A DNA stretch of 63,993 nucleotides, filler included, from Neolecta irregularis DAH-3 (taxonomy: Eukaryota): assembly GCA_001929475.1 (NCBI GenBank). It is 7 parts of 7 records of this genome, joined end to end, with 100 filler letters (N's around TTAATTAATTAA, not from the genome) between each part and the next. Parts side by side here need not be neighbours in the genome. Positions count along the whole stretch, not along the records: positions 28,270 to 40,904 come from LXFE01000339.1; 6 more parts are not named here. One strand, 5' to 3'. A program made the translations under genes and the position numbers. Every line of letters begins with the position of its first letter. The first letter of the stretch is position 1. A model generated the notes under the pieces. It did no database searches. It was not told the DNA's origin and saw only the letters and a program-made list of their open reading frames with translations. Positions 4,312 through 61,683 of this stretch are shown here, one piece after another.

Positions 4312-4650
4312 CCCCCCTAAACTTGACACCACCAAAGAAATTGTCATGACACATATATTTGTCTACCAAACTTCTATTCAAGGTTTAGCTCCCATTCAAA
4401 CATGCAGCTATCAATACTAGCTCTTTCTAACGCCTTTGCTGTCTTTTTAGCTTCTAATTCTGGTGCTCTAGCTACGATTTTTGCCCTTTCTTGAGTTGCT
4501 TTATCAATCACCTGTTGAATACTTTCAATAGTGGCAAATCAGCTATTTGGGTCAATTGGAACCCTTTTCCACACCTTCTTGTCCTGGAACTCCTGGATAA
4601 TTGATCCTTGCTGTTTAATAACTGATTCTTGCTGAGCTTGTTGAGCATTA
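4312..4650 (-). mobile_element. 3' end of a degenerate pogo/Fot1-type DNA transposon
   Basis: Minus strand reads ...DKKVWKRVPIDPNS*FATIESIQQVIDK..., resembling Fot1-type transposase C-termini, followed by a terminus-like GTGGTGTCAAGTTTAGGGGG sequence. Confidence 0.55.
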
Positions 4651-4654
4651 AGCT

Positions 4655-5014
4655 GTGCAATTGCCTTCCCAGTTTAGGATGGGCGAGACGGGCTGGCGTG
4701 GTGAGTGAGGTGGGTGAGGCAGGGGAGAAGGAACACGGGGAGGGAACGACGTGTCAGGCACGTGAGACGGGCGGGCCAGGCGGGTAGGCACGAGGCGGGA
4801 GAGATAAGCAGGCGAGATGGGAGAGGGAGGTGAGACGGGCGGGCGAGGCAGGAGAGGCAGGCGAGACGGGTAACGGGAGTGCGAGGTGTGTGAGACGAGG
4901 GAAACCACAGGCTTTTCATGGGCCAGCTAAGCCCATGGCCTGTCCACAACACTTGAGGGCAGCAATATGGGCTGTATTGAACAGGGCTAAGCCCACAGCT
5001 GGTCCCCAACACTG
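4655..5014. mobile_element. Non-autonomous purine-rich element with hAT-like right end (copy 2)
   Basis: G/A-rich tract 4680-4900 (GAGACGGG, GGCGAG repeats, GGGAGTGCGAGGTG shared with ~538-551); ends CCCCAACACTG. Confidence 0.45.
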
Positions 5015-12000: not shown

Positions 12001-14578
12001 TCCTAGTGATGCTGCCAATGGAAACCTCGGCGAGGAAACTACAGTTGTTGCTGAAAATCCAGATGAGACAACCCAGGACGAGGCACTCTCAAAAGCCCAC
12101 CATACTACCACTGAAGGCGAACCATCCAGCAGCAAACATGAAAACGAAAGTGACGATCAGACCCATGTTGGATCTATGGGAATTCAGCTGGAAAATAAAC
12201 ATGGCAATGAATCTGCCGTTGTATCGTCTCATCCACCATCAAATCCAAACCCAGAGAGAGAAACCTCATCAAACGAATCAATACCTAAGATTCCGATTGT
12301 TTCTGTACCTCCTCCACCTCCAATACCATCCACATCAACAGTTGCTATCCCTACAATCATTGTTCCTCCTCCCCCACCACCACCGCCGTTATCTGGCTTC
12401 AATGGTCCACCTCCGCCTCCCCCGCCTCCCTTACCAGTGAATGCACAATCGTTACTTGTATCTCCACCTGTCCCACCTCCTCTACCAGGTTTAACTCCTG
12501 GTCCAGGGCCACCGCCTCCTCCCCCTTTGTCTGGTTTATCACTGGCTGGTCCGGCTCCTCCACCTCCTCCACTGAGCGGCATTCGAGCAGGAAAAGTGAA
12601 ATCAACCATCTCTAATGGTGATTCAAACCTGCCATTACATACCGGCGAAATTGGATTATCAGGAATACCTATAGTTAATCCACAAATCAGAGTTCAGAAG
12701 ATTTCAGTCAGACCGAAAAAGAAATTGAGGCAAATGCATTGGGACAAATTAGACACAAACATTGAGTTTACTGCGTGGGGAGATAAAAAGCTCGACGCAA
12801 ATGTACTATGTAATAAACTGCGAGAACGGGGCCTCCTTGAAGACATTGAAAAAATGTTTGCCATGAAGGAGATCAAGGTTAAAATAACCGTTCAGAAGTC
12901 GGATAAGAAGCAGTATATGCCTCATAATTTGAGGCAAGCCATGGGTAATTTTCGTAAAGATTAGGATGCATTGAATGTCTAGATATTAATCTCCGACCCT
13001 GGGTTAACATCCCAGAGCTTGAATTCGTCAGGAAAGTCCTTCGCTGTGAGAAAGACGTTCTAGAAAATTCCGTCGTAATGAACTTTCTCGGAGATGAGAA
13101 AATATGGAGAAATGAAACTTTGGTAGTTTCTAGAACCATGTCAGATCTGATCTTCAAGGCACATAAATTGATTTCCTATTCTACAGACTGGTCATCGCAA
13201 AAGAACAAACCTACTTCTAACCCCGACGAATTGGACCGAAATGATCGTATATGGCTTGAGCTGTGCTACAATTTAAGACCATACTGGGGTAGACGAATGG
13301 CCGCTCTCAACATGACTCAGTCCTTTCAAGAATCTTATCAGATTTTCGTCGCGGATATTAAGTTGTTCTCGAGAGCATCAGATGCAATTAGAAAATCTCA
13401 GTGTTTTCGAGAGATACTTGATGTCATCCTTCATGTTGGGAACTTTATGAACGATACAAGCAAACAAGCGAATGCCTTCAAACTCAGCTCACTACAAAGA
13501 TTACAATACACCAAGACCGACCATGGGAATCTTACCTTTTTACATTTCGTGGAGAAGGTTGTCCGGGATATGTTCCCTGAACTTCAAGAGTTCCTTGAAG
13601 ATCTGGCTATATGTAAGGAAGCCGCATCCCGTATATTTTCATATCCCGTTCTGTGCTAATGAGTCAGGATCGGTCAAAAGCACCCAAGAAGAATGCAATA
13701 AATTCCTTCAGGAAATCAAGCTTATTGAAAACTCCTTGGGTCAAGGCGTCCTCTCGGATTCCAAGAAATTTCACCCGGAAGATCGAGTTCTTAGCATTAT
13801 TGTTCCTGCACTCCCAGAATTCAAGAAGAAAGCGACATTTCTTCGAGAACATCTCGATAGCATGATAACTACATTTGATGATACGCTCCGCTTTTTCGGA
13901 GAGACGGCTGGAGATGCAAATGCTCGTGACGACTTTTTCAAGATGATTACACTTTTCCTTAATGATTATGTCCGGGCGAACCGCGAAAATATGGAAAGAG
14001 AAGAAAAGGAACGAGCTCTCGAGCTCCGTAGACGCGCACTGGGGAATGCTCAGATCACCGCAAAACATCGTCAGGATATGATGTTTGATAATTCTGGGAA
14101 ACAAATCGACCATTCACTTATGGATAATCTTCTTGAAAAACTTCGTGCAGGACCCGATACAGCCCGAGAACGAAGGCGGCAACGCAATGCAATGATTGCA
14201 AGTCCTACTTCCTTGTCTGGGACCATGAAAAATAACCAACCACCAGTTGTTGATCTTACGACTACTTCTGCTCCTGGCAACGCAACATTAAATATTGCCT
14301 TGCGGGCTCAAAATATGCTGGCTGGTCTCCGCGGACAGACTCCTACTCCTTCGGTAGCTAGCGAATCATTCGAGTCAGATACTTCCACTTCGACAGTAAT
14401 AACTCCTTTAACAATCGCCAACGATACTCGTCATACGCGTCGTCAGACCGAATACCTACTGAACCAGTTTCTCCTGGAAAAGGAACGATCACCATCTCCT
14501 AGACCATCAACAACTGAGTCCTTGATGCCCTCACAGTTAGTCGATGATTCTCAGGCAGAAAATAAGGTACAGGAGTGA
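9072..14578 (+). CDS. Diaphanous-related formin (GBD/FH3, poly-Pro FH1, FH2, DAD), SepA/Bni1-like
   Basis: LNNKYGADDA, TIDGRGKMGSLVGAS, poly-proline FH1 (~12300-12570), RPKKKLRQMHWDKL, VGNFMND...FKLSSL, LMDNLLEKLR (DAD). Confidence 0.93.
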
Positions 14579-26066: not shown

Positions 26067-26166
26067 TTGGAACCTTCATACAACGAATTCAACGGAACCC
26101 AACCGCCTCCCAAAATCAATTTGTTTAAGGTCTAACGTGATACCACGGTAGAAAGAATCCTCCTTA

Positions 26167-26339
26167 TAGTCGAACCTGGCTACAGGGAATCTCCATACAA
26201 CGAAATCTTCCCTATAACGAAATCAACTGGTTTCAAAAATTAATTAGTATGCGGTATTTTTCTATCATGATAGAACGAATCCGCCTTATAAAAATTCAAC
26301 GCCCTTGAATGCCACGTTCGTTATAACTAGGTTCGATTG
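26167..26339. mobile_element. pogo/Tc1-mariner-type MITE
   Basis: Imperfect TIRs TAGTCGAACCTGGCTA / TAACTAGGTTCGATTG with TA on both flanks and internal AACGAA repeats. A related left end is at 61219. Confidence 0.8.
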
Positions 26340-28169: not shown

Positions 28170-28269
28170 NNNNNNNNNNNNNNNNNNNNNNNNNNNNNNN
28201 NNNNNNNNNNNNNTTAATTAATTAANNNNNNNNNNNNNNNNNNNNNNNNNNNNNNNNNNNNNNNNNNNN
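28170..28269. other. Artificial scaffold linker (N..TTAATTAATTAA..N); also at 40905-41004, 43639-43738, 53875-53974, 61684-61783, 62854-62953
   Basis: Identical 100-nt spacer with stops in all six frames, present six times. Confidence 0.98.
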
Positions 28270-28273
28270 TATG

Positions 28274-28340
28274 CAAGCAAGCAAGTCCAAAGTCCAGAAT
28301 TGGACTTGCTTACTTGTTAGCAAGTCTGGTTAAGAATCCT
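28274..28340. repeat. Inverted/subterminal repeats at a contig edge, probable DNA transposon end
   Basis: CAAGCAAGCAAGTCCAA ... TTGGACTTGCTTACTTG hairpin plus a further GCAAGTC copy. Confidence 0.45.
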
Positions 28341-28636
28341 TCCCACAATGGCAGAGGCGAGTCTTGATATTCACTTTGGAACCTAGTCATTGTTCTTTGC
28401 AGTTAGTAGAGTCCAATGTCAAGCATTAATCTTTTGTCACTTAAAGCCATTATTTTCTATGGAAAAACTGATGATGTGGGTCTAAGTAACTTGATTAGCT
28501 GTATGACAAACTTATACTGAGCTAGGAGATTATATTTATCGCATGGATAATTTTTATCTCATTGAAAAAATGTCGTAAATTAGTTTGTTGGTTAGGAGAT
28601 CTTGAACGCCAAATTGAACCACTCACTACCTTTGCC

Positions 28637-29239
28637 ATGCTCGTTCGATGCGCGATTAGAAAAGTACCTATTCGTCGAATTACACCTCGACATTTTTCGA
28701 CGTCTATTAACCCTTTTAAAGGTATCATTTCTATCTCCATTTTTCTTATTAACGTGAATTAACAAGATTCAAATGAGGTTTCAAAGTCTTCTGAATATAG
28801 AGTTCTTCAAGTTCCAGAAGAGCAACTTGAAGCAGTGGGCGCTCTACCCGGCACCGTTCCCACGAATATAGAGCAAGCAACTGGTCTTGAACGAGCGGAA
28901 CTTCTTGGAAAATTGCATGGTGTTGATATTTTCAATATGAAACCGCTTGAAGTTAATCGACTTGGAACCATGAAAGATCCTATTCCTGTTGATTCGTTTT
29001 ATAAGAGACGGTTTGTTGGGTGTACAGGGTATCCTGTTGATAGTCACGATACACTTTGGCTTGACGTTCGAGAGGAGCAAGTTGGACGCTGCCCTGAATG
29101 CGGATGCGTTTATAATTTGAATTTTATCGATATTGGGGTAGAAGGACATCAACATGATCATCCCGATTCTGACATCTCTGATTATCAAACGGGTGGGATT
29201 ATAAATGGACGGGAAATTAGTTGGAAGGCATATCACTAG
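28637..29239 (+). CDS. COX4: Cytochrome c oxidase subunit IV (COX5B family)
   Basis: Mitochondrial presequence; PGTVPTNIEQATGLER, RFVGCTGYPVDSH, RCPECGCVY; one intron. Confidence 0.93.
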
Positions 29240-30081
29240 GTGTGCGGATAAGTTTTGCATATTTTATCAATAAGATATGAATGATTGAAATGGTGTATCT
29301 GTTATGAGTTTCCGGGAATCCATTGGACTGTCTCGAACCATCTTCAGAGCAGCGGACTTATCAGATCATCAAGGGCTTCGACCGGTTGAGATAGGCAACC
29401 ATTTGAAATGTGTGGGCTTTTCTAAATGTAATCAGTCAGAGTTTTGATCGATATATAACCTTTACGATTATGTGAAAAGACACTTTACCTGATGCACTAT
29501 CCTCGCTGCTTCATTTATTTGTAATTACGTAATAGCACCACTTCTCCCCTCTACGCCTTTCAGTAGCCAGATGGAAAGTTCCATTTTTACTTGTCTTTCT
29601 GGTAAAACAATGATCGACATGGTGTTTGTACTTTTTTCTGCTCATCTGTATTTTCTCCTTACTACGTCGGACTATAAAAGCCTTGCTCAGTAGTGCAATA
29701 AACAGAAATTAGAATACAATTACGAAGCAACCTCAGCGAGGTATGTCCAATCGAGTTAGTTGACACCATCACAAAACACTCAAGTGGATGTAATTACGTT
29801 TAATTTCATATCACGGTGAAGGTTCTTTGAAGGCGAATGGAAGATAAAAGTCGAACGAAATATCAAGTCGAGCGATGTCGAGAAATTCGATATTCATGAA
29901 AGCATGAGAATAAGGTCAAGTAAACGATGAATGATTGATGCATCATCGAAAGACAACTCTCAAATACGGATGATTAATAAATGGACATGAGGAACGGCCG
30001 ACATATCAATGAATGGATGAATGAATGAGAGATAAACAGACCGAGAGAAGAACAAGTAAAAAGACTGATCATCATAAGTGA

Positions 30082-31449
30082 TTAATTCAAGATAAAAGTG
30101 ATGGATGCAATGAAAAATAAAACACCGGGATGCAATACAGTTCGTGTAGCCAAACTCTTTCCTTGATTAAATCCATTCTGGGCCTCGGTAGAGCCAGAAG
30201 CTGAGCTTGACCCAGAAGCGGAACCAGAACCAGAAGAAGAACCAGAAAAACTAGAAGTGCCGCCTTGGCTGCCCTGTGCACTTGAACCAGCAACTGATCC
30301 TTGACCCGGGACGTTTTGAACTGTTTGAGTTTGAATATTACTATTTGCTGCTGTGCCACCGGCAGTAAGATTTGTGCCTGTCGCAGCCAGACTTGAAATT
30401 ATAGTCTTGTCATCTTTGATAGCGATGGAAGTATTGAGACCTTTATTGTCTAGCCAAACGTAACTTGTTTGGCCTTGGACTGTAGCGCCAGGGGGAGGAC
30501 CGTAGCATTCTATATTGACTGATTCCAAAAACGCGAAATCGTAGCTGTACTTTTGGATATCTTGGGAATTCCAGTCTATTTCGCCGCCTGCCCACTTTAT
30601 TGTGCCTGGAGCATTTGAGGCTAGACCGCCTGGCCAGAGGGAGAATTGTATTCTGGAGGGGGTTTGAGGGTATTGAAAGTTCCCGGTGGTTGCGTTGTAT
30701 GTGTCCACTTTGTTGAGAGTACGAACTGTTTGGCCGTCGATATCCCATTTTAGGACTTCTGGGGACCAGTCGATGGTGTATGTGTGGGTGGTTGCGAAAG
30801 AATCTGAAATGGAATGATTTCCCGAGTTTGTATCTGGAGTGAGATGTGAAACAGAAAGACTGGTACAATTGAGGACAGCCTGCCAGTAAAAGTTTGACTG
30901 GGCCTGTTGTAGGTCGTTTCCGACGAACTCCCAATCAACTTCGTCGTGGACGTCTGACATTGTGCTGGAGGTCAGAAGGGAGAGAGAAAGGCGATACATG
31001 AAGGAGGTGACTACGCCCTGGCCTCGGGAGCTGCGCATTGCCGCGGACACCTTGCCGTACCACATGTAGCGGGTCCAGCTCAAAACGGTGCCGACCGAGT
31101 TCTTTGGCATGGTGAGGAGGGTGCCGTTCTGGTAGGAGAGGGGCGTGCCCTGGGCCACAAAGTCTGCCTTGGTTGGATCGCCGAGAAAGTCGGAGATAGA
31201 GGCGACGCGATCGAGGGAGGCGAGGGCAAAAGACCCGGACTTGCAGACGGGCATTGGCACGCAGGACTGGAGGGAGAACGACGCCAGGGGGTCGCAGCCC
31301 TGGAGACAAAAGGCTCCGACGCCGCACTGGCCGTACTGCGAACAGCATGGCGTGTCAGAGGGACACTGCCCTGCACCGGCGCCGCACGAGGGGGGAGCAG
31401 CAGTGAGCAGGGTCGCAGTAGCCAGCAGGAGCCACAGAGTGGGTGCCAT
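30082..31449 (-). CDS. UTR2: GPI-anchored GH16 chitin transglycosylase with N-terminal chitin-binding domain (Utr2/Crh2-like)
   Basis: Signal peptide, CPSDTPCCSQYGQCGVGAFCLQGCDP, DEVDWEF, YPQTPSRIQFSLW, Ser-rich linker, hydrophobic C-terminus; two 33-nt introns. Confidence 0.9.
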   Translation of the reverse strand: MAPTLWLLLATATLLTAAPPSCGAGAGQCPSDTPCCSQYGQCGVGAFCLQGCDPLASFSLQSCVPMPVCKSGSFALASLDRVASISDFLGDPTKADFVAQGTPLSYQNGTLLTMPKNSVGTVLSWTRYMWYGKVSAAMRSSRGQGVVTSFMYRLSLSLLTSSTMSDVHDEVDWEFVGNDLQQAQSNFYWQAVLNCTSLSVSHLTPDTNSGNHSISDSFATTHTYTIDWSPEVLKWDIDGQTVRTLNKVDTYNATTGNFQYPQTPSRIQFSLWPGGLASNAPGTIKWAGGEIDWNSQDIQKYSYDFAFLESVNIECYGPPPGATVQGQTSYVWLDNKGLNTSIAIKDDKTIISSLAATGTNLTAGGTAANSNIQTQTVQNVPGQGSVAGSSAQGSQGGTSSFSGSSSGSGSASGSSSASGSTEAQNGFNQGKSLATRTVLHPGVLFFIASITFILN

Positions 31450-31454
31450 GGTGG

Positions 31455-31640
31455 GTTTGGGTGGATATAGGGTGGGTATAGGGTCGGTATTGGGTGGATA
31501 TCGCGTGGATAGAGTGGATATCGCGTGGATAGAGTGGATATCGCGTGGATAGGGTGGATATCGCGTGGATAGGGTGGATACCGGGGGATAGGGTGGATAG
31601 GGTGGATACCGGGGGATAGGGTGGGGATAGGTGGTGAATA
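31455..31640. repeat. Minisatellite, 20-bp unit GTGGATATCGCGTGGATAGR (about 4 copies) with degenerate GGATAGGGT flanks
   Basis: Directly visible tandem repeats filling the IPK1-UTR2 intergenic region. Confidence 0.95.
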
Positions 31641-31679
31641 CAAGACCGAGGGGTATATGCACAATGCCGCGGAGTATTC

Positions 31680-32524
31680 TTAGTCCCTTGTTTCACCACG
31701 CCCGCTAGCCCCGTCCCGCTGCAGCCAGCACTCGCTCGCGGCGTACCACCAACCCCCGCGTTCCAGCTGCGCTGCAGTCTCCCGCCACTCCCTCCTGTCC
31801 CGCTTTGCATCCACATCGCCCAGCCGCACGCCGCCCAGCCGCAGATCCACATACACGCTCACATCCCGCACCGTCATCCCCGCCCGCTCCCCTTCCGCAA
31901 ACCGTTCCTGCAGCCCCCGCACCACCTGCACTATCCCGCTGCCTTCCAGTATCTCCGCCAGCCGCTCCTCCTGCCGTTACCTTGGTCTGTGCGCGCCATA
32001 CCCTGCCCGCCGCAATATAGCCCGCGGCCCTCTTTTTGTCCCCCCACACCATCTCCAGAGGACAGAAACTCTGCTCCTTGCCTCGCATCCCCCGCACCGC
32101 ACACGTCCGGCAGTTCCGCGCATCCCCTGGCGCGCTCTGTGCCTGAACAAGCCATTTAGGCTCCATTAGCTTTCCCTCGAGTCTGCCATACTTTGAATTC
32201 AACCATCTCTTCCCACCTGCACAGATCCTCCACCATCAGAATCTCTTCTTCCTCTACGATCGCTGGTATATCCATATCTGAGATCGCCTCCTTGACTCGT
32301 CTCCACATCTCCCGATTCATCCTAAATAGTCGCATCTTCATACTAAACTCCTTGGGAATAAACGGTCCTATAGCCGACCTGTAATATTCGTAAACATCCC
32401 GCGAATTCATTCCATCCTTTCGAACCCGAATCAACATGTCCTGATTAAGCAATTTATTCTATATACTTACATGTTCGGGCGTGGAAAGAAGAATGTTGGC
32501 GTTGCCTTGTCCGATTACGTTCAT
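31680..32524 (-). CDS. IPK1: Inositol-pentakisphosphate 2-kinase
   Basis: GQGNANI, EFK|PKWLVQ, CRTCA, FCPL, MTVRDVS, GDVDAK; two 31-nt introns. Confidence 0.85.
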
Positions 32525-32574
32525 GTAATATTGAGGTGGACAGAAATTAATTATTACCGAGATCTATTTCTCTC

Positions 32575-32760
32575 ATTGCATATATCGATATTTATATTTA
32601 TATTTACATTGATCCGATATTATATCGGATTGTATCCATATTTGTATTTATATTTGCATTTACATTGATTCGGAATCGTATCGGATGGGATCGATATTTA
32701 TATTGATTGAGTGCATTCTGTTGATTGGGTATTATATCGATCGTATATTTATCCTCTATA
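32575..32760. repeat. AT-rich low-complexity tract (TATATT / ATCGAT-like motifs)
   Basis: Degenerate short repeats upstream of IPK1. Confidence 0.6.
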
Positions 32761-32841
32761 TACTTCACGTCTTGCAAAATATCAATCGTATCATCATATT
32801 TTAACCAAATTTAATCACATCAAAACCACATCTAAACATTA

Positions 32842-33444
32842 TCAAGACATTCGCTCTTCCAAAGGTCTCTGTTGAGGACTTGCACTCCGTTCCCGTCTAG
32901 GTCTTCCCTTGGGTCTAACAAAAGCATAATCACATTCTACCAGCTGATCCAAAATTTTCTTGCTGTTCATCTTTTCAATCGCATTTTTCGCTTCCTCAGG
33001 AGTCGTATACTCGACAAGCGCGTATCCCTATATATCAATCACGGCCCGAGCATGCACTACCTTGACATAACCCGTCCGTCGATCTAAATTCAAGTGACAA
33101 TTTCGAATTTCTCCAAATTCAGCAAAAGCATCTACGATGTCTTCTTCGCTAGCCTCTTCATGAATATTTGTAACCAGTACAATCCATCCCTCAATCGCTG
33201 CACATCATCAATAACACTCGAAAGATGAAACGTACACCTTACTGCAGTAGCCCCGTCTTTTGCGATAAATTCCCCAGCTCCGGATTCCAGAATCGAGGCA
33301 AACGATCCTGTTTCCATGGACGACGCATCAGAAGATTTAAAACCACGACCTTTTCGACGAACGTCTCCTTGTTAGATCACTCTAAAGAAAAAGGCTACCG
33401 GCTGCAGTATCGTCGATTTGCATTTCATCCTCGCGGTCAGTCAT
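32842..33444 (-). CDS. RBM8A: Exon junction complex protein Y14
   Basis: [45 protein letters not shown]. Confidence 0.93.
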
Positions 33445-33627
33445 CTTGTCGGTGAGAAGACGTTCAAGCAGCCTACATGTTCGAAAACTCATTCACATTC
33501 ATAATACATTAAATTTACACACCCTTCATCATTATATCTAAAGTCTATTCAAATATGATTATACCGACGTGCACAAATACTTTATGCATAATCCGCCTTT
33601 TTCAAGTCTTACTTTCCATTCATCAAC

Positions 33628-33969
33628 ATGCCGCAAGGAATCTTTAAGCTCTCCAAAAAACCCGATAAACCTTCAAAAAAACCATCAAATGGACCTAAAC
33701 CTGGACGTATCATCTACCTTTTTGTCCCATCTCACTGTAGAAAAATATATAGCTCCCAAGAAAACAACTTTGGTTAAACAGAAACGGCTGCACACTGTAC
33801 CTCCCATATCGCCCTCTTTATTTAATCATATTAGAAGGTCACAAAAGAAATTAATCGTCGGAATGAAATCGCGTTAGCTGGAAAAGCGGGTTCGACTGGA
33901 AAATTAACAGTGTTGAAAGAAGTCGCTGACTTAGCTGCCCCTTCAAATATCCCAAAAAAGAAGAAATAA
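33628..33969 (+). CDS. Small basic UPF0390/DUF2462-family protein (two introns)
   Basis: Spliced MPQGIFKL...GPKPGRKYIAPKKTTLVKQKRL...KEINRRNEIALAGKAGSTGKLTVLK. Confidence 0.75.
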
Positions 33970-34257
33970 AACTGTAATATCGTCTATGTTGGAGTTTTGG
34001 AATTTGATATCAGTATTGCATCGAGACCTTGTTTATTCACTTTTGTGGTTTTACGTTCTTACCACTCGACGCGATACTGCGGAGCTCGATTTGACGTGAA
34101 GTTGGATAATGCTTGAGATTTGCATACTCAGAATCAATACTTGTTACTAACCCATGTTCAAATTTGAAAAAAATCTGGTTTTTGTGGTTCCGGACACCCC
34201 ACACGTTTCCTAGTAGTAGTGCTGGTTTGCCATTCCTTGATTCTCCCTCCATTCGTC

Positions 34258-37200
34258 ATGGTCATCTATATGGGCAGTGAGCATACAACCGCAGAAGAAC
34301 ACAGATTGAATGATGATCGCAAGAAAAGAAAGGTATCATTCTCTGCTGTACAACTTGCCAATAATAATTTTAGTATTGGAAAAGTCGCATATATCCCACG
34401 TCATATCTAACAATTCACAGAATATGGACCTTATCTTTCTGAACGACAATGGGTATACCGAAACTTGTTCAAACCTAAGTGTCTAGGCTACTGTACGAGA
34501 AGATTACTCTGCAGACGGGGATGCCTGGTCAAATTTTCCACATGACCATGCACGCTCACGGGCATTTCGCTGGGGAGAAGATGGTATTGGTGGCTATTCA
34601 GGTAAATGCACATGCTGGTGCTTTTGCTGAGTTGAAGACACTCATAGTTTGCTATGTATGTCATTTGCATTTTGGAACGAGGTTTGTCCTGTCAAACCTG
34701 CTTCTCATGTCTAGAGGGATCCCTATCTCAAAGAACGACTCTACGGGCTGACAGGGCATGAAGGTAGTGCTTGCCAATTTGTTCTACTAATCAAAAGGAA
34801 ACCATGGAGAAGATGTCAAGGAGCTATATTACTACCTTGATTCAACACCAACTCACAGTTACATGAAATATCTCTACAAGTATCCTCAAAAAGAGTATCC
34901 TTATGAAAAACTTGTCGAAGAGAATGCCAAAAGATCTCGAAAAGAAACAGAATTTGAAATTACTGACACAAACATGTTTGAGAACAACAAATATTGGGAT
35001 ATTTTCATTGAATACGCAAAAGATGATGACAACCCTCATGAGACACTTATTCGAATTGCAGCGGTGAACCGTGGTTCAGAAACAGCGTCGTTGCATATTA
35101 TTCCTCAAGTACGTATTCTTAGAATACAATATTTAACCATAGATGTGGTTTCGAAATACGTGGTCTTGGGGTATTGAAGCTGCTGACAAGAAACCCCATA
35201 TCAAGCAACAATCATCTACTGTAGCTCATGCCAAACACTGGGACTTGGGTGACCGTTATCTCCAATGCTCGTCCTCTCCTGGTCCGACTGACGATCTCCC
35301 CGATGTCCTACCCACTCTTCTTTACACAGACAACAACACAAATAAGAAACGGCTTTACAACGTCGAGAACGAGAGTCCATATGTAAAGGATGCGTTTCAT
35401 GAACACATCGTCGATGACAAACGAAATGTAACCAACCCTCGAAAAGAGGGCACAAAGGTTGGGGCTTGGTTCTTTTTTGAAGAAGTTCCTCCCGGTGAAT
35501 GCGCTGTAGTCAGAGTCAAATTCTCAGATAGGGTCGAAGAAGGTTCAATCGATGAGGAAATCTTTGATAATACCATGGAAAAACGACGACTTGAATCTGA
35601 TGATTTTTATTGGAGAATCAGTCCAAGTCCGATGTCTGATGATCTCCGAAATATACAACGTCAAGCATTGGCCGGAATGTTGTGGAGTAAGCAACACTAT
35701 CTATTCATTCATGATCAATGGGCCTATGGCGACCCACTTCAACCGCCTCCGCCACCTGAGAGAAAGCACATTAGGAATCAGCACTGGCGGCATTTGCACA
35801 TTGATGATGTTCTTTCTATGCCAGATAAATGGGAGTATCCATTCTTTGCTGCTTGGTACAAAGCCGAATTGCTCTTTGCTGATGACCAGGGATACTGCCT
35901 TTCATTGTATTCCTTTAACTATGGTTGACCCAGACTTTGCCAAAAAGCAACTAGATTTGCTGACAAGAGAGTGGCATAGGCCATCCTTTGCTCGTAGAAA
36001 CTTACACTATAGGTATATGCACCCTTCAGGTCAACTACCCGCATATGAATGGAACTTTAGGCAATGAATTTGTTTTTTATTATATTGTTGATTAATAGTG
36101 ACGTAAACCCTCCAGTGCACGCCTGGGCTACCTTCAGAGTGTTTAAGATGGAGAGAAAGCTTTATGGTCGTGAAGATCTGGATTTTCTAGAACGCGGTAC
36201 GCAAATATCTTGAGAAGCATCCAACCAAGTTTCAGTTTTCCAGAAACTTCTTCTCAATTTCACTTGGTGGGTCAATAGAAAGGATGAAGAAGGAAGCAAT
36301 GTGTTTGAAGGAGGCTTTCTCGGCCTTGACAACATTGGTCTTTTCAATCGATCAGAACCTCTTCCCACAGGTGGTCGCCTGATGCAAGCTGATGGAACTG
36401 TGAGAAATCCCTCCCACCAGATTGTGCTTACTTGTAGTCCTGGATGGCTTTCTATTGTCTTTCCATGTTAAATATTTCTCTTGAGCTCGCCAAATACCGA
36501 AGGACCTATGAGGATATTGCTTCGAAATTCTTTGAACATTTCCTTTTTATCTCAGATGCCATGTCATTCAGAAGTGGGGACAACGATGTTTCTCTGTGGA
36601 ACGAGGAAGACGAATTTTACTATGATTGCATTTCGTGGGGAGGACCTTGGCGACAGAGCCTACCCGTCAAATCTCTCGTTGGATTGATACCACTCTACGC
36701 AGTTTTGACTCTTGAACCAGAAATTGTCAATCGCTTTCCTTCTTTCAAGAAACGCTTGAATTGGTTCATCGAGAACAGAAGTAAAGTTGCCAATAGAAAC
36801 ATTGCATCTATGAAGCATCGTGGAAAAGGAGACAGAATGATGCTTGCTTTAGTCAATAAAGATCGGCTAGTTAAAATTCTTCAAAAAATGCTTGATGAAG
36901 ACGAATTTCTTTCCCAGTATGGGATCAGATCGTGAGCTATAATAGAAGGACTTTGCTGATGTGTAGACTTTCAAAGTATCATCAAGAACATCCCTACTCA
37001 ATGAACGTCAATGGACAAGAATTCCAAGTGGTTCGCAGTCTTTGTTTGATTCGTCTAATGTGCTAGGACTATGTTCCAGGCGATTCTAACTCTGGACTTT
37101 TCGGCGGTAATTCCAACTGGCGAGGTCCAATCTGGTTGGCAACAACTTTTCTTTTGATTGAGAGTCTTCAACGGTTTTATCTCTACTATGGAGACACCTT

Positions 37201-37890
37201 AAAAGTTGAATGTCCGACTGGAAGCGGGAATTTCATGCATTTGGGACACGTGGCCGAGGAAATTCAACATGTATGGCATTATTTTATACTCCTGACTTTA
37301 TAGAGAGTTCAACACATATTTGTCCGCGATGAATCTGGAAGACGGGCTGCGAACGGCGGCAACGATTTGTTGGACTTTAACCCATACTTTAAGGATCACG
37401 TTCTCTTTCACGAATTCTTCCACGCCGATGATGGGAGTGGTCTCGGTGCCTCTCACCAGCTGGGATGGACGGGCCTCGTGTATTGTTTTTGCTCGACGAG
37501 ATACTAACATCAGTGCAAAATTGATCCATGATACTGGGTTGACGTGTCGTCTTCCTAAAACTCCTAAAACTCCAACTTCGGCAGCTAATCATTATTTTGA
37601 CGAAGTATTCAGTCATGTTCCTCGACCTCGACACCGGCGAACTGGGACTGGAAGATCACTTGGTAGTGCCATTGTTTGGTATATTTTTTAAATATCCAGG
37701 TAATCGGTCAGACTTTGATGATGCCATGTCTCAGTATACAGTGGTCAATGATGACAAAGACAAGGAAGCCAATGACGAGAGGATTGAGCAAATCACTCAG
37801 TACTTGCAACAAATGGAGTCTGGTGGAGATGCTATGAGTTACGAGCACGCTGATGAATTTGAAGTCGAAGCAGGGTTGGATGAGCTGTAG
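34258..37890 (+). CDS. GH63-like / MGH1-like six-hairpin glycosidase (YMR196W-like), many introns
   Basis: [105 protein letters not shown]. Confidence 0.9.
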
Positions 37891-38047
37891 ATGTAGATGA
37901 ACTTGGCGCACAACAGGATACATTCCAGCATATAAATCGGTCACGATACATGGCATATAAATTTGGCACGAACATTTATAAATCGGTCTATATGAGTTGG
38001 GTGAGCGTATTAAGGACGAGGACGGAAGAAAAGAGGTAAATGTATTT

Positions 38048-38549
38048 TTAAACAACGGTGCCAGCATTTGAAGCTATTCTGGGCCAGAGGTCTGCACATT
38101 CTTTTGCGACGGGGCCAGTGATGGCGGAGCCTTGAGGTAAGAAGAGAAGGAAGGGAAAAGAGACCTTTCATTTCGCCCTTTGGATTGACGATGACGCCGG
38201 CGTTGTCTTCAAAGTAGAGGTAGACGCCGTCTGGGCGACGCCAGGGTTTTCGCTGGCGGACAATGATGGCGGGATGGACCTTTTTCCGCAGTTCGGGCTT
38301 TCCCTTTTTCACGGTGGCGAGGACCATGTCGCCTGGGGGGTGAGCGTGGGAGGGAGGGGGCTGCGGGAGAAGAATACCTGGGGCACCGGCGGGCAGTCTG
38401 TTGAGGCGGGCGCCGACGCCGTAGACGGCGATGATGTAGAGGTTTTTTGCGCCGCTGTTGTCTGCGCAGTTCATGACTGCGCCGACGGGGAGGCCGAGGG
38501 ACATTCTGAACTTTGTGCCAGAGGCATTCTGTAGGCCTTTCTTTGGCAT
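38048..38549 (-). CDS. RPL23: 60S ribosomal protein uL14
   Basis: [65 protein letters not shown]; two introns. Confidence 0.97.
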
Positions 38550-38594
38550 TGTGGGAGGGAGGAGAGAAAAGGAGAGTCGGGGTCAGTGTGAGGG

Positions 38595-38610
38595 CGTGAC
38601 TGCGTGACTG
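38595..38610 (-). promoter_or_regulatory. Tandem HomolD-type boxes (CAGTCACG x2) upstream of RPL23
   Basis: Two adjacent CAGTCACG about 45-60 nt upstream of the ATG, followed by a pyrimidine tract; matches the fission-yeast ribosomal-protein core promoter CAGTCAC(A/G). Confidence 0.7.
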
Positions 38611-38630
38611 CGTGGCGGGCCGTGCTGCAC

Positions 38631-38910
38631 CAGTACTGTTCACTGCTACACTCAGTACTGTTCACTGCTACACTCAGTACTGTTCACTGCTACACTCAGT
38701 ACTGCTCATGCTACACTGCTACATTGATCACGCTGCTACACCGACTGCACTGCTACATTGATCACACTGCTACACGGCTCACTGAGGGGACTAACTACAC
38801 TGACTGACACTGACTGCGCCTACCACACCACACCACACCGACTACACACCACCGACTGCACACCACCGACTGCACACTACACTCACTACACACCACACTC
38901 GCTACACTGC
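38631..38910. repeat. Minisatellite, 22-bp unit CAGTACTGTTCACTGCTACACT x3 decaying into CAC/CTACAC repeats
   Basis: Directly visible; fills the divergent RPL23/RPD3 promoter. Confidence 0.95.
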
Positions 38911-38930
38911 CCTACCGCTGGCCACACTGC

Positions 38931-40353
38931 ATGACGGCGACTCTCACTGTCGATGCCTCGTCGACGCCGCTGGCCCAGAGCATTCCTGCGAGCACGGCGC
39001 TGCGGCGGACGATTGCGTACTTCTACGACAGCGACGTGGGCAACTATGCGTACGGAGCGGGGCACCCGATGAAGCCGCACCGCATCCGGCTGGCGCACTC
39101 GCTGGTGATGAACTACGGGCTGTACCGGCGGATGGAGGTGTACCGCGCGAAGCCGGCGACGCGGGCGGAGATGTGCCAGTTCCACACGGACGACTATGTG
39201 GACTTTCTTGCGCGCATCACGCCGGACACGATCGCGGCGTACCCGAAGGAGCAGGCGCGGTACAACGTGGGCGACGACTGCCCGGTGTTCGACGGGCTGT
39301 TTGAGTTCTGCGGGATCTCGGGCGGCGGCAGCATGGAGGGGGCGGCGCGGCTGAACCGCGGCAAGTGCGACGTCGCGGTCAACTGGGCGGGCGGGCTGCA
39401 CCACGCGAAGAAGAGCGAGGCGAGCGGCTTCTGCTACGTCAACGGTGCGGCTCCTGCGCGGCGGCGGTGCTGATCCAGACATTGTGCTCGGCATCATCGA
39501 GCTGCTGCGCTACCACGCGCGCGTGCTGTACATCGACATCGACGTCCACCACGGCGACGGCGTCGAGGAGGCCTTCTACGCGACGGACCGCGTCATGACG
39601 TGCTCGTTCCACAAGTACGGCGAGTATTTCCCCGGCACCGGCGAGCTGCGCGACGTCGGCGTCGGCAAGGGCAAGTACTACAGCGTCAACTTCCCCCTGC
39701 GCGACGGCATCGACGACGCCAGCTACGCCAGCGTCTTTGCGCCCGTCGTCGCCGGCATCATCGACTGGTACCGCCCCGGCGCCATCGTCCTGCAGTGCGG
39801 CGCCGACAGCCTCGCCGGCGACAGGCTCGGCGTCTTCAACCTGAGCATGAAGGGTTTGTCGCTGCCGGCATCGCGCTAACCGCCAGGCCACGCAAAGTGC
39901 GTCGAGTTTGTCAAGAAGCTCAACGTCCCCACCCTCGTCCTCGGCGGCGGCGGCTACACCATGCGCAACGTCTCCCGCACTTGGGCCTACGAGACAGGCC
40001 TCCTCCTCAACGAGGAGCTCGGCCCAGATCTCCCGTACAACGAATACTACGAATACTTCGGCCCCGACTACAAGCTAGACGTGTGTCCAAACAACATGGA
40101 AAATCTAAATACGCGCGAATACCTCGAAAAAATCAAAACATCCGTCCTGCAGAATCTGGAACGCACCAAATTCGCCCCGAGCGTGCAGATGCATGACACG
40201 CCCCACGACCGCGACGTCGACGATGACGACGACGACGACGACGATTTAGATGACAGACCCGACGACGACGACGATCACGTGCTCGGAAGGGAAAAAGTGG
40301 GTATCATGCATGGCATGGACATGAATGTGAATTTGAACGAGAATGAAGAGTAG
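38931..40353 (+). CDS. RPD3: Class I histone deacetylase (Rpd3/Clr6)
   Basis: [60 protein letters not shown]; acidic tail; introns of 34 and 33 nt. Confidence 0.96.
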
Positions 40354-40407
40354 GGTTTTGTGCTTATTCACATGTATTAATACATGACTTGAATTCTTAT
40401 CTATTAT

Positions 40408-40839
40408 TCATCTATCGAAAATATCTTGAAGTATCTCTGGCCGGGCCTTTGGGATTCGAGAAGCTTCAATACGCCTACCAATACAGGAAGATATTTGTGG
40501 ATTTCGTTGAATAAACTTGGAAACCCATCTACGTCCAAGGGGAATAGTGTCTCCATACATGACTAAAATTCTTGTCGCCATTTCTCTTGTCCGGGTGTGT
40601 GAGGGAGGATATCCTTGCACAGCTTGTTCAAATATCCATTCAACAAGAAACTCCTCTTGCCGTGGTGTCAATCGCTGGTGATTTTGGTGGCTAATTCGAC
40701 GATTTGTCTGGCCGTGGATTCGCCCAATTAGTGTAGACCGCGGGATTCCATATGCGGCCGCGGCTGCTTTTTGAGAGGTAAATTTTCCTGAATTGAGATC
40801 TTCAATAGCTGATTGAATTGTTCTTTCACGGCTATCCAT
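40408..40839 (-). mobile_element. pogo/Fot1 transposase N-terminal fragment (Psq-HTH + CENP-B-type HTH), truncated
   Basis: SQKAAAAAYGIPRSTLIGR, LTPRQEEFLVEWI, LGRRWVSKFIQRNP; homologous to 61784-61980. Confidence 0.88.
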
Positions 40840-41004
40840 TTCGAAGAGATGGTGGAGAAATACCTTTATTTGTATCTTTCATTATATATTTATGTAGTGG
40901 CAGGNNNNNNNNNNNNNNNNNNNNNNNNNNNNNNNNNNNNNNNNNNNNTTAATTAATTAANNNNNNNNNNNNNNNNNNNNNNNNNNNNNNNNNNNNNNNN
41001 NNNN

Positions 41005-52145: not shown

Positions 52146-53874
52146 TTATCTGAAAGAGTGATTATCACGAATATGGTCGTTTAATTCTGAATTTTCAGCT
52201 TCGTTTAAAATGTCCATTTCAGATCTGCGGGAAAGTTGAACATTTGATAGACTTTGATAGAATGTTCGAACTTTAGGGTGCGCCATTACTTTACTCGGTT
52301 CAAATCGCAATATTTGTAAACCGTCTCTAGAAACGGCTCTTGACAACGCGACACTATAAATTAGAAACCCCGCAAAACAAAGAAAGGAAATACTAAGCTT
52401 GGCCCTTTTCAAATACTCTTCCCAAATCAACTTTAACGCGTTCAAGAGTTTGGCCTTGAGCTTTGTGAATGCTGATTGCGTATGCGAGGATCAGCGGCAC
52501 CTGATTTCTAGCCGCTTGAATTTCTCCACTGGGTAATTCTATTTTCCACGATTCAGGTTGAACGAGGAGATCTCGGGTCATTCCCGACGATAAATTGAAA
52601 CGAACTAGAGGCCAGGTTTTAGCTGTAGCAGCCGCAGCTTGTAACTGTTTTAGATGGTTACGTTTTCTAGCTCGAGTAGATGATTCATCATCATCTTGTT
52701 CACCAAGATCAAAGGGATCGTTGAAAGCGGCGTCTCCATCTTGTTCATATAACTGAAATGTCTTTTCATTCATAAAGCCCAAAACGATACCCAAGCTTCC
52801 ATTAACCAACTGTTCATCAAAATTTTTAATAAGCATGACTTGAGAATTTGGTTTTAATTCAAGATTTTGAGGGGCCATGCAATTTGACAGTAATTTTTCG
52901 CGAAAAGATTTATCGGTGACTGTGCCCGAGTCGGTCGCCGTAAAAACTTTGACATCGCCTTTTAAAGCCGACATTCTTGCAGAGTTTGCACGGTCGACTT
53001 CTTGACGGGTAGGAAAGCTTGAATGAGCAGGGGGGATTAATACAAGAAGAATACAGTTCAGTTGGGAGGATTCCATCTTTATATTGTGGTGGTCTTGATA
53101 ATTCTTTGAATTTTGTGATTGATTTATCTGATAAAGCGCCTAAGCGCATTTCGTTGAGCATATTTACGAATTCTGGGGTTAATTTGGTTACACAAAAGAC
53201 ATACCTTGATCTTTTTGACGAAAGACGTGGTTGAGGGAAATGGTATGATCTATAGCCGTTTTCCAAGCCACTGCCTCGAAAGCGAATTTTGCCGCTTTAG
53301 AAGCTTGGGGGACGGGGGGTAACTGGAAAAAGTCGCCGGTGATGACTATTTGAATGCCGCCGAACACTTTACCGTTATTTTTCAATTTTGCAGCAATATT
53401 TTGTAGTTTGTCAAACAAGTCTGCGTCGACCATGGAGACTAGAGATGAAGAGCGGGGCAAGAAGGATATTACTCTCGTCGACGATTAAAACTTTTACTCT
53501 AGCCCACCTCATGAGGGATTTTCTGCTTTTCTTTATTTTTTTGACGAGGTCGTCGAGGGGCTCTTTGCCGAGACCGATGCCGGCAAAGGAATGGAGGGTT
53601 ACGCCGCCGATGTTGCAAGCGGCGAGGCCGGTGCTGGCGGTGACGGCGACGTGGTCATACTCGCCTTTGTATTTTACGCGGAGGGCTTTGATGAGTTCTC
53701 TGAGGAGGACGGACTTGCCGGTGCCTGGGGGGTCAGAAGGAATTAGGGAGAGAGGAGAGACCGGCGGAGCCAGTGAAGAAGATGCTCTTGGACTGGTGGA
53801 CGGCGAGATCGATGACTGCGCGTTGTTCGAGGGAGAGGAAGATGGGGGCGACGCGGCGGGGGAGGGGCGGGGGG
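52146..53874 (-). CDS. PIF1: Pif1-family 5'-3' DNA helicase (5' end lost in the gap)
   Basis: [73 protein letters not shown]. Confidence 0.93.
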
Positions 53875-54979: not shown

Positions 54980-55773
54980 GGCGTGCGTTTGGTGCGCTTC
55001 AAATTTCATGAAATGTGGCTTTTTTTAAAATTCATATTATCAGCGCGCGTTTGGTGCGCTCGTAATATGGCTTTCCGAAAATTCGAATTTTAAGCGTGGG
55101 TTTGGTGAGGATCCTCCCAAATTCTTCCAAAAAAACAGGTGTGCTGCAGACGCCCTCGCAGGACCCGCGCCTTAGAGGCATTGTCCTGCCGGCCATGCTG
55201 TATCCAGATGCTGCCGCTGATGCCCGTCCGGAGACGGAGTAGGGGATGGTCTGGACGAGGTGGGCGCAGCGAGCGAGGAGGGTGATGGCGGTGCTCTCGA
55301 CGCCGGGATGATGAGGGCATGATGGGCAGGGCCCTGACAGGGAGTGCATGGGCAAGGCGGGCGAGCCAAATTTTATAAAATATGGAGCGAACCAAACTCG
55401 CTCCTAAAATTCGAATTTCAAGAAAAGCCTGTGGCAGAAAAACGGTACACGTAGTATTTCTGGTTATCTGATGGGTCTTTCTATTATTATACGTTTCCTT
55501 GGTTTACTACAATGACGTGGCTCATAATTGTAAAACTACAAGTAGTCATATAATGCTCTATCCATCCACGCAAAGAATCGATGGAACGTTTTCGCTTCAT
55601 CTCCTCTAAGAATCGGTTCTGATATATATCAGAATCCCCCTGAAAAGTTCTACAACAAGAATCTGCGCGACAAGCCCTATTTTATAAAATGTGGAGCGCA
55701 CCAAACGCGCTCCTAAAATTCGAATTTTTAAAAGCCACATTTTATGAAATTTGGCACGCACCAAACGCAGCCC
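54980..55773. mobile_element. PIF/Harbinger (Tourist)-like non-autonomous element with long TIRs and subterminal repeats
   Basis: GGCGTGCGTTTGGTGCGC...AAATTTCATGAAATGTGGCTTTT (54980-55061) is inverted at ~55690-55773 (CCAAACGCAGCCC). TTA precedes the left end; GCGTTTGGTGCGC and AAATTCGAATTTT motifs repeat. Confidence 0.75.
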
Positions 55774-56001: not shown

Positions 56002-57132
56002 ATAATTATTAGTGTTGTAGTATGTCTATGATTAGGCTGATTAGACTGATGTCGACTACTCACATATGAGCTCGAAGATAGAACCACGGAGACAAGATAC
56101 AACACAACACAACATATATTCCCAAAAAAAATATTTTTAAAGATCAATTTTTAAGGGACATGTGTAGATGGATCATGTAGGTAGTTTGGCCTCGTCACAA
56201 ATGAGAAGAATATCTGATCCGCGAATACCGTGCTTTCCTAGCACAGAAATAGAGGTCTATCCATTGTGTATTTTTCTAGCTAGACTAATCATGAAGACTG
56301 AAAATTCATCAATATGTAAACAGAACAATGAAGGCAAATCATAATTATTCTCTAAAAAGCCACAAATATCTCTAATGTTTGACATCGCACAAGTTTAGGT
56401 CGGTCGTTTGCATCATGATGTCTCATTCTACCGGCTATATTTTTACAAGACAAAGAAAAGGACTCCAACAGTAAACGTGATACATATTGGCTAATTTAAA
56501 ACAAGCCCATTTCCCCTTCTTCACTACCTAGTCTTGAGACATAGAGGTTAGTAAGCCACCGTATGAAACTACTCGGGTTTTATGATTGAATGCTGTCAAA
56601 ACGAGTTCATCGTGGTCGCTGATATACGAGATGAATATTACTGTTGGCCATCAAACATGTATAGAAAGAAGCGTTTTTTGATAGTAGCAAGCAGGCAGCA
56701 AGACCCAAGTCTCGTGCCAGGAAAGAAGGAAAAGACGAAGAAAAGGAGGGAAAAATTGGTGATGAATACGCTTCCGAGTCCAAAGGCATGAGCGAAACAA
56801 GAAACTGCCGGAAGTTGGGGTTTTCTGATTCTACACTCGAACTTGGAATGTAGTGTTGAATTCGCTAGAGGGCGGATTCGTTCGATCATGCTAGAAAAAA
56901 ATGACCCATACTAATTAATTTTGGAAACCAGTTGGGTTCGTTGTAAGGAGGAATTCGTTGTATGGAGGTTCCCGATAGCCAGGTTGTTAATCCACTGAAT
57001 ATTCAAGTTTGTTCACTTTTCCCGGACATCTGAGACAACTTGTCTCGGTATCACTAGATGCGTAGAAATAAAAAGGCCGGGTTCTTCTGCTTTAGGCTGA
57101 AGTTTTCTCACCATTAGAAAGTCGTTGTCGGT

Positions 57133-60840: not shown

Positions 60841-61218
60841 TGATCTCTCTAATCTCTCTCTTTTTATGCGTTCTTGTACATGACTCGTTGAAATTACATA
60901 TCTCAATTATCAGGTTTTTGGGATTTCGAAATTGCTACTGTTATCTTGTCATCCTGGTAAGACGGAATTTGGCCTCGTCGTCTGCCCTGTAGCAAATATA
61001 GCAATGTCCTATAGAAATACTCTAGAAAAGTGCCAGGACATCCTTTTAAGGCACTTCCAGGTCAAACTGCCGTGTACTACCAGTTTTAATACCCAGCAGT
61101 CTCGCAACATTCCTTCCGTATCCTAGTTTCAAATCCAAAGCGATAAAACCACATCATTTTCAGAAATTCGGGTCAAACATGACAATCTTGTTTACCAGGA
61201 TTGCGCCAAAAGGTTATA

Positions 61219-61340
61219 CAGTCGAACCTGGCTATAGGAAATCTCTGCACACCGAATTTCTCCTTATAACGAACCCAAATGATTTCCAAAATTAATTTGT
61301 ATGGGGTTTAACGAATTTAAACCTTACTACGAGGTTTGTT
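61219..61340 (+). mobile_element. Partial copy of the pogo-type MITE at 26167
   Basis: TA|CAGTCGAACCTGGCTA..., TATAACGAA, AAAATTAATT shared with 26167-26250. Confidence 0.7.
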
Positions 61341-61611
61341 AGATTAATGCCAAATTTGTTATAAAAAGCAGATATGAAACCCCATTCCACTATTACAAAT
61401 ATGGAATGTACCACAAGGATTGGACAAGGATATCACACAGGAACATTGTAATGTTTAAGGAATCATGATTAGTATATAAAATGAGCGGATTGTGACCACC
61501 TAGCTGATATACTCGTATCTTGAGATGCTAGAACTATCTCTGATTCTTATTCGTACAGATGTTTCCTACTTACACATCGAGAGGACAGTCATCCGGTCTA
61601 TTCTGTCCTTA

Positions 61612-61683
61612 GCCCTGTCCTCTATCCTCTATCCTCTATCCTCTATCCTCTATCCTCTATCCTCTATCCTCTATCCTCTATCC
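61612..61683. repeat. Heptanucleotide microsatellite (TCTATCC)n at a contig end
   Basis: About 9 perfect units preceded by degenerate CTGTCC units. Confidence 0.97.

Follow-up and report, generated by a model that had tools for sequence, protein, structure and literature searches.

What could set the base composition of a stretch of chromosome by position, and do so differently on its two strands? The question is raised by a window of 63,993 nucleotides, filler included, from the fungus Neolecta irregularis DAH-3 (GenBank assembly GCA_001929475.1), in which seven contigs are joined end to end. Near 31.7 kb, the GC content of this DNA rises steeply, and the + strand passes from an excess of G to an excess of C. 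A first-pass annotation had seen here a fixed, position-centred and strand-asymmetric substitution process acting on synonymous and intron sites, had named a meiotic break hotspot or a replication origin or terminus as candidates, and had suggested an undescribed class of chromosomal landmark. We find that this GC island (island 1) has a companion (island 2) on the same N-free contig, positions 28,270-40,904, and that the second island changes polarity inside a coding sequence, at synonymous sites, in the sense opposite to that expected from the gene itself. The islands may mark sites at which meiotic recombination is initiated, a reading that is weighed below against four others.

Two GC-rich islands with a central strand flip

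Two sequencing runs, X1 and X2, are both nearly identical to the window. The contigs of run X2 (labelled 'DNA?') are treated here as spliced transcripts because they skip intron-sized GT..AG stretches of 33-38 nt, once 88 nt (at the 15 joints listed, of 29). The features of island 1 and its genes are as follows.

30,900-32,250, no strand: GC peak of island 1, GC 0.59-0.667 in 300-bp windows
30,450-31,660, + strand: left arm, G-rich, skew +0.16 to +0.51
31,680-32,400, + strand: right arm, C-rich, skew -0.39 to -0.475
31,653-31,694, no strand: flip point, given as the support interval of a change point over all G and C letters
31,467-31,599, no strand: tandem repeat of a 20-nt unit (6.6 copies) in the 5' leader or promoter of UTR2, with G predominating on the + strand
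30,082-31,449, - strand: GH16 Crh/UTR2-like cell-wall transglycosylase gene (UTR2; Pfam PF00722, E 3.7e-41)
30,082-30,833, 30,867-30,964 and 30,998-31,449, - strand: UTR2 exons, separated by two 33-nt introns
31,680-32,524, - strand: IPK1-like inositol-pentakisphosphate 2-kinase gene (IPK1), 251 codons including the stop
31,680-31,970, 32,002-32,160, 32,192-32,440 and 32,471-32,524, - strand: IPK1 exons, with introns of 31, 31 and 30 nt
32,842-33,444, - strand: RRM (Y14-like) gene, 1.2-1.8 kb to the right of the island 1 centre

The GC rise towards ~31.7 kb is as first described, the flanks having values of 0.28-0.46 in the same 300-bp windows. The rise in CpG that was claimed with it stands for content and not beyond it: the observed/expected ratio is 0.76-1.05, near the value of 0.88 for the whole window (GC 0.431), and CpG thus simply follows GC. 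On the + strand the GC skew takes values of +0.19 to +0.51 over 30,900-31,649 and of -0.41 to -0.475 over 31,650-32,249, with a weaker C excess extending from the right arm to ~33.9 kb; the AT skew, ~+0.2 in the left arm and -0.08 to -0.19 in the right, bears out the description of a strand that is G/A-rich and then C/T-rich. None of 2000 permutations gave a change point as large as that observed. The left-minus-right difference in skew (700 bp), which across the window has a mean of 0.007 and a standard deviation (sd) of 0.156, is 0.77 at 31,675, 4.9 sd above the mean; the runner-up value is 0.46. The flip point falls at the stop codon of IPK1 and upstream of 31,543, where the UTR2 transcript is seen to end, and the intergenic DNA of 31,450-31,679 has 104 G and 22 C on the + strand.

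UTR2 and IPK1 both lie on the minus strand, as had been stated, with gene models that carry Pfam matches, and their synonymous sites lean in opposite directions. At fourfold-degenerate sites the coding-strand ratio of G to C is 10:49 in codons 41-160 of UTR2 and 48:10 in codons 121-240 of IPK1 (Fisher p 3e-13); for IPK1 it is 68:16 over the whole gene and 9:6 in codons 1-80. On the + strand, the left arm has a G fraction of 0.75-0.90 at fourfold sites ending in G or C. The introns are likewise opposed, with + strand skews of +0.69 and +0.75 in UTR2 and of -0.06, -0.43 and -0.20 in IPK1. In the Y14-like gene the fourfold coding G:C is 18:8 (p 6e-4) and all three introns have more G than C on the coding strand, contrary to the norm of the window; six of six introns in IPK1 and the Y14-like gene are of this kind, against two of 12 others (p 0.0015). 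The fading of the bias along UTR2 that was originally described applies to GC at third codon positions (GC3), which drops from 0.82 to 0.28 from 5' to 3', a decay over ~1 kb, and not to the ratio of C over G, which is high throughout the gene. Rewriting of amino acids in UTR2 is negligible by comparison with 80 of 119 returned homologues; over its first 60 residues UTR2 scores -0.06 on a G-minus-C codon index where the homologues score 0.12, and there are similar gaps elsewhere in the protein.

The claim that the flip in island 1 is independent of gene orientation does not survive comparison with a known pattern. Most unicellular fungi are reported to have an excess of C on the coding strand in promoters and at the 5' ends of genes, and an excess of G at the 3' ends, a pattern seen also at fourfold sites and in untranslated regions (UTRs) (McLean & Tirosh 2011, PMC3315797). 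The geometry of this 5'-C/3'-G rule places G to the left and C to the right on the + strand at intergenic regions, whether tandem, divergent or convergent. Island 1 comprises the 3' end of IPK1 and then the promoter and 5' end of UTR2, and it therefore obeys the rule. Island 2 provides the stronger evidence, since its intragenic flip reverses the gene-relative rule. Its features are these.

38,000-40,150, no strand: island 2, GC up to 0.68, CpG observed/expected 1.3-1.5
38,931-40,353, + strand: class I histone deacetylase gene, with the Hist_deacetyl domain contiguous over three exons
38,931-39,444, 39,479-39,853 and 39,887-40,353, + strand: deacetylase exons (manual model, from Pfam and splice joints)
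39,323-39,555, no strand: fourfold-site flip point of island 2, within the coding sequence of the deacetylase
38,010-38,549, - strand: gene for ribosomal protein L23 (L14p family), first part, fourfold coding G:C 5:50
38,631-38,775, no strand: tandem repeats between the L23 and deacetylase genes and in the deacetylase leader (three copies of a 22-nt unit, three of a 17-nt unit)

Within the deacetylase gene the fourfold G:C ratio is 66:17 in codons 1-160 and 17:78 in codons 161-360 (Fisher p 4e-17), and the change point was reached in none of 2000 permutations. Codon positions 1 and 2 have no such flip, so that it is synonymous and does not come from amino-acid content. GC3 is ~0.97 over codons 41-320, that is, for ~1 kb. 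The gene model draws on two sources: Hist_deacetyl profile positions 1-129, 129-253 and 258-295 correspond to exons 1-3 (E 6e-26, 4e-41 and 0.003), and a spliced contig joins 38,675-39,443 to 39,478 onwards, across intron 1, which lies beside the flip. Intron 2 is also skipped, at a depth equal to that of the spliced contig over intron 1 (contig pieces listed to 39,443). A long antisense open reading frame (ORF) at 38,886-39,497 has no family match; by hand-worked alignment of the frames, the third positions of the deacetylase are the first positions of this ORF, which is thus not a hidden gene with C-ending codons. Over island 2 as a whole, the + strand skew takes the order +, -, +, -, with boundaries near 38.5, 38.9 and 39.4 kb, and the deacetylase leader (38,675-38,930) has 102 C and 38 G on the + strand. 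Either the divergent promoter near 38.55 kb holds a second centre, or functional constraint acts on the C-rich leader block. The anatomy of the islands is in this way established: their scale, their polarity, the kinds of site affected and, in island 2, independence from reading frame and gene boundary.

Five coding segments follow one rule, the + strand being G-rich to the left of a centre and C-rich to the right of it, with centres at 31.67 and 39.43 kb. The + strand G:C counts are:

Left of centre: UTR2 49:10; L23 50:5; deacetylase left part 66:17
Right of centre: IPK1 10:48; deacetylase right part 17:78

The rule is followed with odds of ~4-5 to 1, and of 10 to 1 in the ribosomal protein gene. 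In the background, the coding-strand G fraction at fourfold sites ending in G or C is 0.35 (n = 1250), C being preferred over G by ~2:1, and 78 background windows of 40 sites have a mean of 0.37 (sd 0.09, range 0.225-0.625). The corresponding fractions in the islands are 0.07-0.17 and 0.88-0.90. GC3 is 0.8-0.97 in the islands against ~0.35-0.4 in background exons, and the introns and intergenic DNA within the islands are likewise GC-rich. The proposal of a position-centred, strand-asymmetric process at synonymous and intron sites is upheld by these extremes, which lie beyond the background, and by the intragenic flip of island 2. Background genes have an all-site skew of -0.06 in their 5' thirds and +0.04 in their 3' thirds; the fourfold G fractions of the same thirds, 0.35 and 0.39, do not differ significantly (p 0.30). 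The GC gradient is correlated with GC skew over the window (r 0.35-0.45 at 500-600 bp; 0.25-0.30 without the islands), and outside the islands this correlation probably reflects ordinary gene structure.

Possible recombination-initiation sites and competing explanations

The reading that we favour, tentatively and at a little short of an even chance, is that the islands are stable meiotic break hotspots, shaped jointly by GC-biased gene conversion and by strand-specific damage to, or repair of, the resected DNA. With repeated GC-biased conversion, almost every free site within ~0.5-1 kb of the break zone would end up as G or C, which would account for the kilobase-wide near-saturation in GC at such sites. 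After a break the 5' ends would be resected, the + strand surviving as the single-stranded 3' tail on the left and the - strand on the right. Damage or error-prone fill-in would deplete the tail of C and A and leave it rich in G and T; alternatively, by our own reasoning, G-T mismatches in heteroduplex, of which the tail strand is always a part, might be repaired with a bias to G:C, which would have an equal sign. Tails rich in G and T would appear on the + strand as G to the left and C to the right.

Several observations are consistent with such hotspots. The choice between A and T at left-arm fourfold sites agrees with the proposed polarity, the coding A:T ratio in UTR2 codons 41-280 being 29:12, that is, T over A on the + strand (baseline A fraction 0.446, p 8e-4); the right arm is uninformative. 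Minisatellite-like repeats at or beside both centres, one of them polymorphic in length between runs (the 20-nt repeat of island 1 has a 9-nt length difference in run X2, at 31,505), fit a hotspot loosely. Run X2 differs very little from the window over 28,270-40,904; four of the five differences among those listed to the left of 40.4 kb lie in the two islands, which is a weak indication, and this clustering again fits a hotspot loosely. There is also a precedent in human meiotic hotspots, where C>N and A>N changes are reported on the single-stranded tail, flanking the break by 2 kb, with the complementary changes on the opposite side, and where the single-stranded DNA to the left of the break is the forward strand (Hinch et al. 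2023, PMC7615360). The islands resemble these in an asymmetry mirrored at a centre, an extent of 1-2 kb and a matching polarity. However, the human data, as described there, concern new mutations at short-lived, PRDM9-defined sites, whereas the islands have an equilibrium-like standing composition with near-saturated GC3, in a fungus. The broader proposition, that stable recombination-initiation sites leave 2-kb islands in which both the G/C and the T/A choice are mirrored at the break zone and record the strand that survives resection, is possible, though we think it appreciably likelier to be wrong than right.

A number of points weigh against recombination as the cause. The C-ending codons of the left arms match both the C preference found throughout the window and the known 5'-C bias; the left arms are all in minus-strand genes, which leaves IPK1, the Y14-like gene and the left part of the deacetylase as the only discriminating segments. 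The sample is two complete islands and one that is cut, on separately assembled contigs, and the closest protein relatives, at ~50% identity, are too distant to serve as an outgroup for polarizing substitutions. There is no clear excess of A over T in the right arm (IPK1 fourfold coding A:T 17:15). The +, -, +, - pattern of island 2 requires two centres, at ~38.55 and 39.43 kb. Its main centre is inside coding sequence, and the hotspots of budding yeast are located in promoters. Outside the islands, finally, the G/C choice at fourfold sites is independent of the local GC gradient (b ~0, n = 1250), so that weaker GC peaks do not share the effect.

An account that we consider unlikely, but far from negligible, is that the islands are an amplified form of the transcription-linked skew of fungi, in which the phases of Pol II activity would impose different mutation or repair regimes and high GC would make the skew visible. 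The published pattern is present at fourfold sites and reaches into promoters and 3' UTRs, and its authors propose transcription or CTP economy as the cause (PMC3315797). It predicts a G-left/C-right arrangement at all intergenic regions, as in island 1, L23 and the C-rich deacetylase leader, and as in milder flips at a tandem gene pair near 11.9 kb and a divergent pair near 59.6 kb; the all-site skew of background genes trends in the same direction. Against this, the amplitude in the islands is far larger than in the pattern as published, it is restricted to 2 kb with GC3 of 0.8-0.97, and one flip is intragenic with the opposite gene-relative sign. UTR2 at its 5' end, IPK1 at its 3' end and L23 conform to the rule, and it is reversed by the deacetylase, which is G-biased at first and C-biased later; nor is the 5' end of IPK1 C-biased (9:6), and the Y14-like gene is G-biased (18:8). 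The background effect at fourfold sites (0.35 vs 0.39) is small beside values of 0.07 and 0.90 in the islands. The skew reported for fungi correlates negatively with GC content, and only very weakly with expression (|R| <0.1; PMC3315797). An intragenic flip caused by transcription would, moreover, need a divergent promoter at 39.4 kb.

Replication, the other candidate named at the outset, fits poorly, and it seems to us improbable that the islands are fixed landmarks of this kind, either termination sites or origins with a reversed bias, at which leading- and lagging-strand substitutions differ. In budding yeast, abrupt changes of skew are reported at origins and also at certain termination sites (PMC3459929), and bidirectional strand asymmetries extending up to 1 Mb from human CpG islands have been ascribed to origins (Polak & Arndt 2009, PMC2817419). 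The latter share with our islands a GC-rich centre of mirrored, complementary asymmetry, within which they carry a signature of GC-biased conversion, but their asymmetry resembles that of a bacterial origin, and on our reading of that source its polarity is opposite. The same objection follows from the G and T bias of leading strands (PMC3315797, Background), from which an origin should have C on the left and G on the right. The strong bias is limited to ~1 kb on each side and decays within 1-2 kb along with GC3, rather than being replicon-long; no more than 7.8 kb separates the two centres, and the skew is flat from 34.3 to 37 kb in between; a terminus would demand sharply fixed convergence of forks; and GC3 near 1 would remain unexplained. 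Selection on the genes, whether for translational codon preference, mRNA structure or nucleosome and promoter signals, has a slimmer chance still. It could draw on the ~2:1 preference for C- over G-ending codons at fourfold sites throughout the window, and the most C-biased genes encode a ribosomal protein and a cell-wall enzyme, which are expected to be highly expressed. A single mRNA that is G-ending in its first third and C-ending later is beyond codon preference, however, and the intragenic flip largely refutes this explanation; the G preference of IPK1 and the Y14-like gene is left unexplained by it, the bias extends to introns and intergenic DNA, GC3 falls steeply within UTR2, and the amino-acid composition of UTR2 is near that of its homologues. 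An assembly chimera, a contaminant or a recent foreign transfer can be given hardly any weight. The X1 assembly is indeed broken in island 1 (near 31,523-31,595, at 31,828 and at 32,001-32,030), and the window is a chain of contigs with artificial linkers. But composition shifts gradually inside single conserved fungal genes; genomic contigs of similar depth run from the AT-rich flank into the core (28,306-31,523 at 427, 32,001-33,118 at 411 and another at 342); spliced contigs of run X2 agree with the window across 28,847-31,543 and from 38,675 onward; and both islands lie within the one N-free contig.

Precedents and consequences

Local GC enrichment of kilobase extent, affecting synonymous sites and overriding codon preference, has precedents attributed to GC-biased gene conversion in the GC-rich hotspot regions beside the mating-type locus of Cryptococcus (PMC3390403) and in the runaway GC regions of gerbils (PMC7403616). 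A central flip between G and C strands is not mentioned in the titles and abstract openings of these two papers, and the 'GC skew' of the gerbil work (PMC6573468, PMC7403616) is taken here to mean GC enrichment. A literature search, which covered articles apart from their supplements, found no fungal GC island with a central G/C flip. The suggestion of an undescribed class of landmark is thus to be divided: the ingredients have already been published, and what was not found in the literature is their combination, namely discrete islands with GC3 near 1, in a fungal genome of 43% GC, with a central and possibly intragenic synonymous flip.

Provided that the islands are footprints of hotspots, one genome sequence would serve to map where recombination starts in an organism without genetics, and would supply a natural read-out of strand-specific repair at breaks. 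Should the effect be general, sequence alone would be enough to place hotspots to ~200 bp, and the fungal 5'-C/3'-G skew could itself be a footprint of recombination on nucleosome-free gene ends and not an effect of transcription; the intragenic flip uncouples position from the phase of transcription, and through it the cause of the skew at fungal gene ends can be tested directly. There are practical consequences as well. Such islands break short-read assemblies, they distort analyses of codon usage and of dN/dS, and they mislead codon-based gene finders, as in island 2, where a codon-score exon caller chose the antisense strand at 39,451-40,074.

Gene models and other features of the window

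The final gene models were made manually and checked with Pfam and splice joints. Gene calls from a spliced-ORF Viterbi method were rejected, as neighbouring genes were fused, and an X-drop version gave rough segments only. Among the 18 introns examined, 17 are of 30-38 nt (for example 30,834-30,866, 33,707-33,740 and 39,445-39,478) and one is of 88 nt. Their ends are GT..AG, and a CTNAC or CTNAT resembling a branch site lies a few bases ahead of the AG; some are multiples of three and in frame, so that plain ORF calls run through them. No tRNA or Rfam family was found within 28,270-40,904.

The UTR2 product is predicted to be a Crh/Utr2-like transglycosylase. Its best relatives are ascomycete proteins named Crh-like, CRH2, crf2 or Utr2, at only 43-53% identity; its introns at 30,834-30,866 and 30,965-30,997 are skipped by spliced contigs of run X2. 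In IPK1, the 30-nt intron at 32,440 is left out by such contigs, and the other two introns were placed from reading frame and motif. Exon 32,002-32,160 matches the Ins_P5_2-kin family at 27.8 bits (cut-off 22.7, E 2e-6) and exon 32,192-32,440 does so weakly, at 15.2 bits; a homologue search with the conserved exon returned no matches. The last and GC-richest exon (31,683-31,970) has no Pfam match, though the family profile continues, and the protein there may have been reshaped by composition. This exon is rich in Gly, Arg, Glu, Val and Trp.

Two further features belong to a third rise in GC.

53,500-53,874, - strand: possible left half of a third island, GC to 0.66 and + strand skew to +0.51, cut by the contig end
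52,170-53,874, - strand: PIF1-like helicase gene (Pfam PF05970, E 4.5e-11 on one exon)

The 5' part of the PIF1-like gene, GC-rich and with C-ending codons, reaches the contig end, and the GC rise here is non-discriminating. GC spikes at 500-800, 4,650-5,000 and 55,100-55,400 were rejected as islands, each having a single polarity only. These three are narrow (300-400 bp) and purine-rich on the + strand, with GC to 0.68, GC skew to +0.59 and AT skew to +0.51; ORFs tested at them had no Pfam match. A pyrimidine-rich spike at 12,200-12,600 lies within a long + strand ORF. Possible identities of the narrow spikes are low-complexity coding sequence and the C-rich leaders of genes on the minus strand.

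The joints between contigs are artificial, each consisting of 44 N, a 12-nt six-frame stop linker and 44 N, and adjacency across a joint is therefore meaningless. They lie at the following positions.

28,170-28,269: artificial contig joint
40,905-41,004: artificial contig joint
43,639-43,738: artificial contig joint
53,875-53,974: artificial contig joint
61,684-61,783: artificial contig joint
62,854-62,953: artificial contig joint

At the ends of contig 28,270-40,904 the depth of run X1 is 8240 and 1579, against ~430 typically, which suggests repeated elements there. An inverted pair of 192 nt links 40,410-40,601 with 61,788-61,979 at 82% identity. Dispersed repeats of ~90 nt, 80-85% identical and in both orientations, are present at 26,165-26,255, 61,217-61,307 and 56,897-56,985, and a pyrimidine-rich tandem repeat with a 7-nt unit, at 61,601-61,683, reaches the end of its contig.

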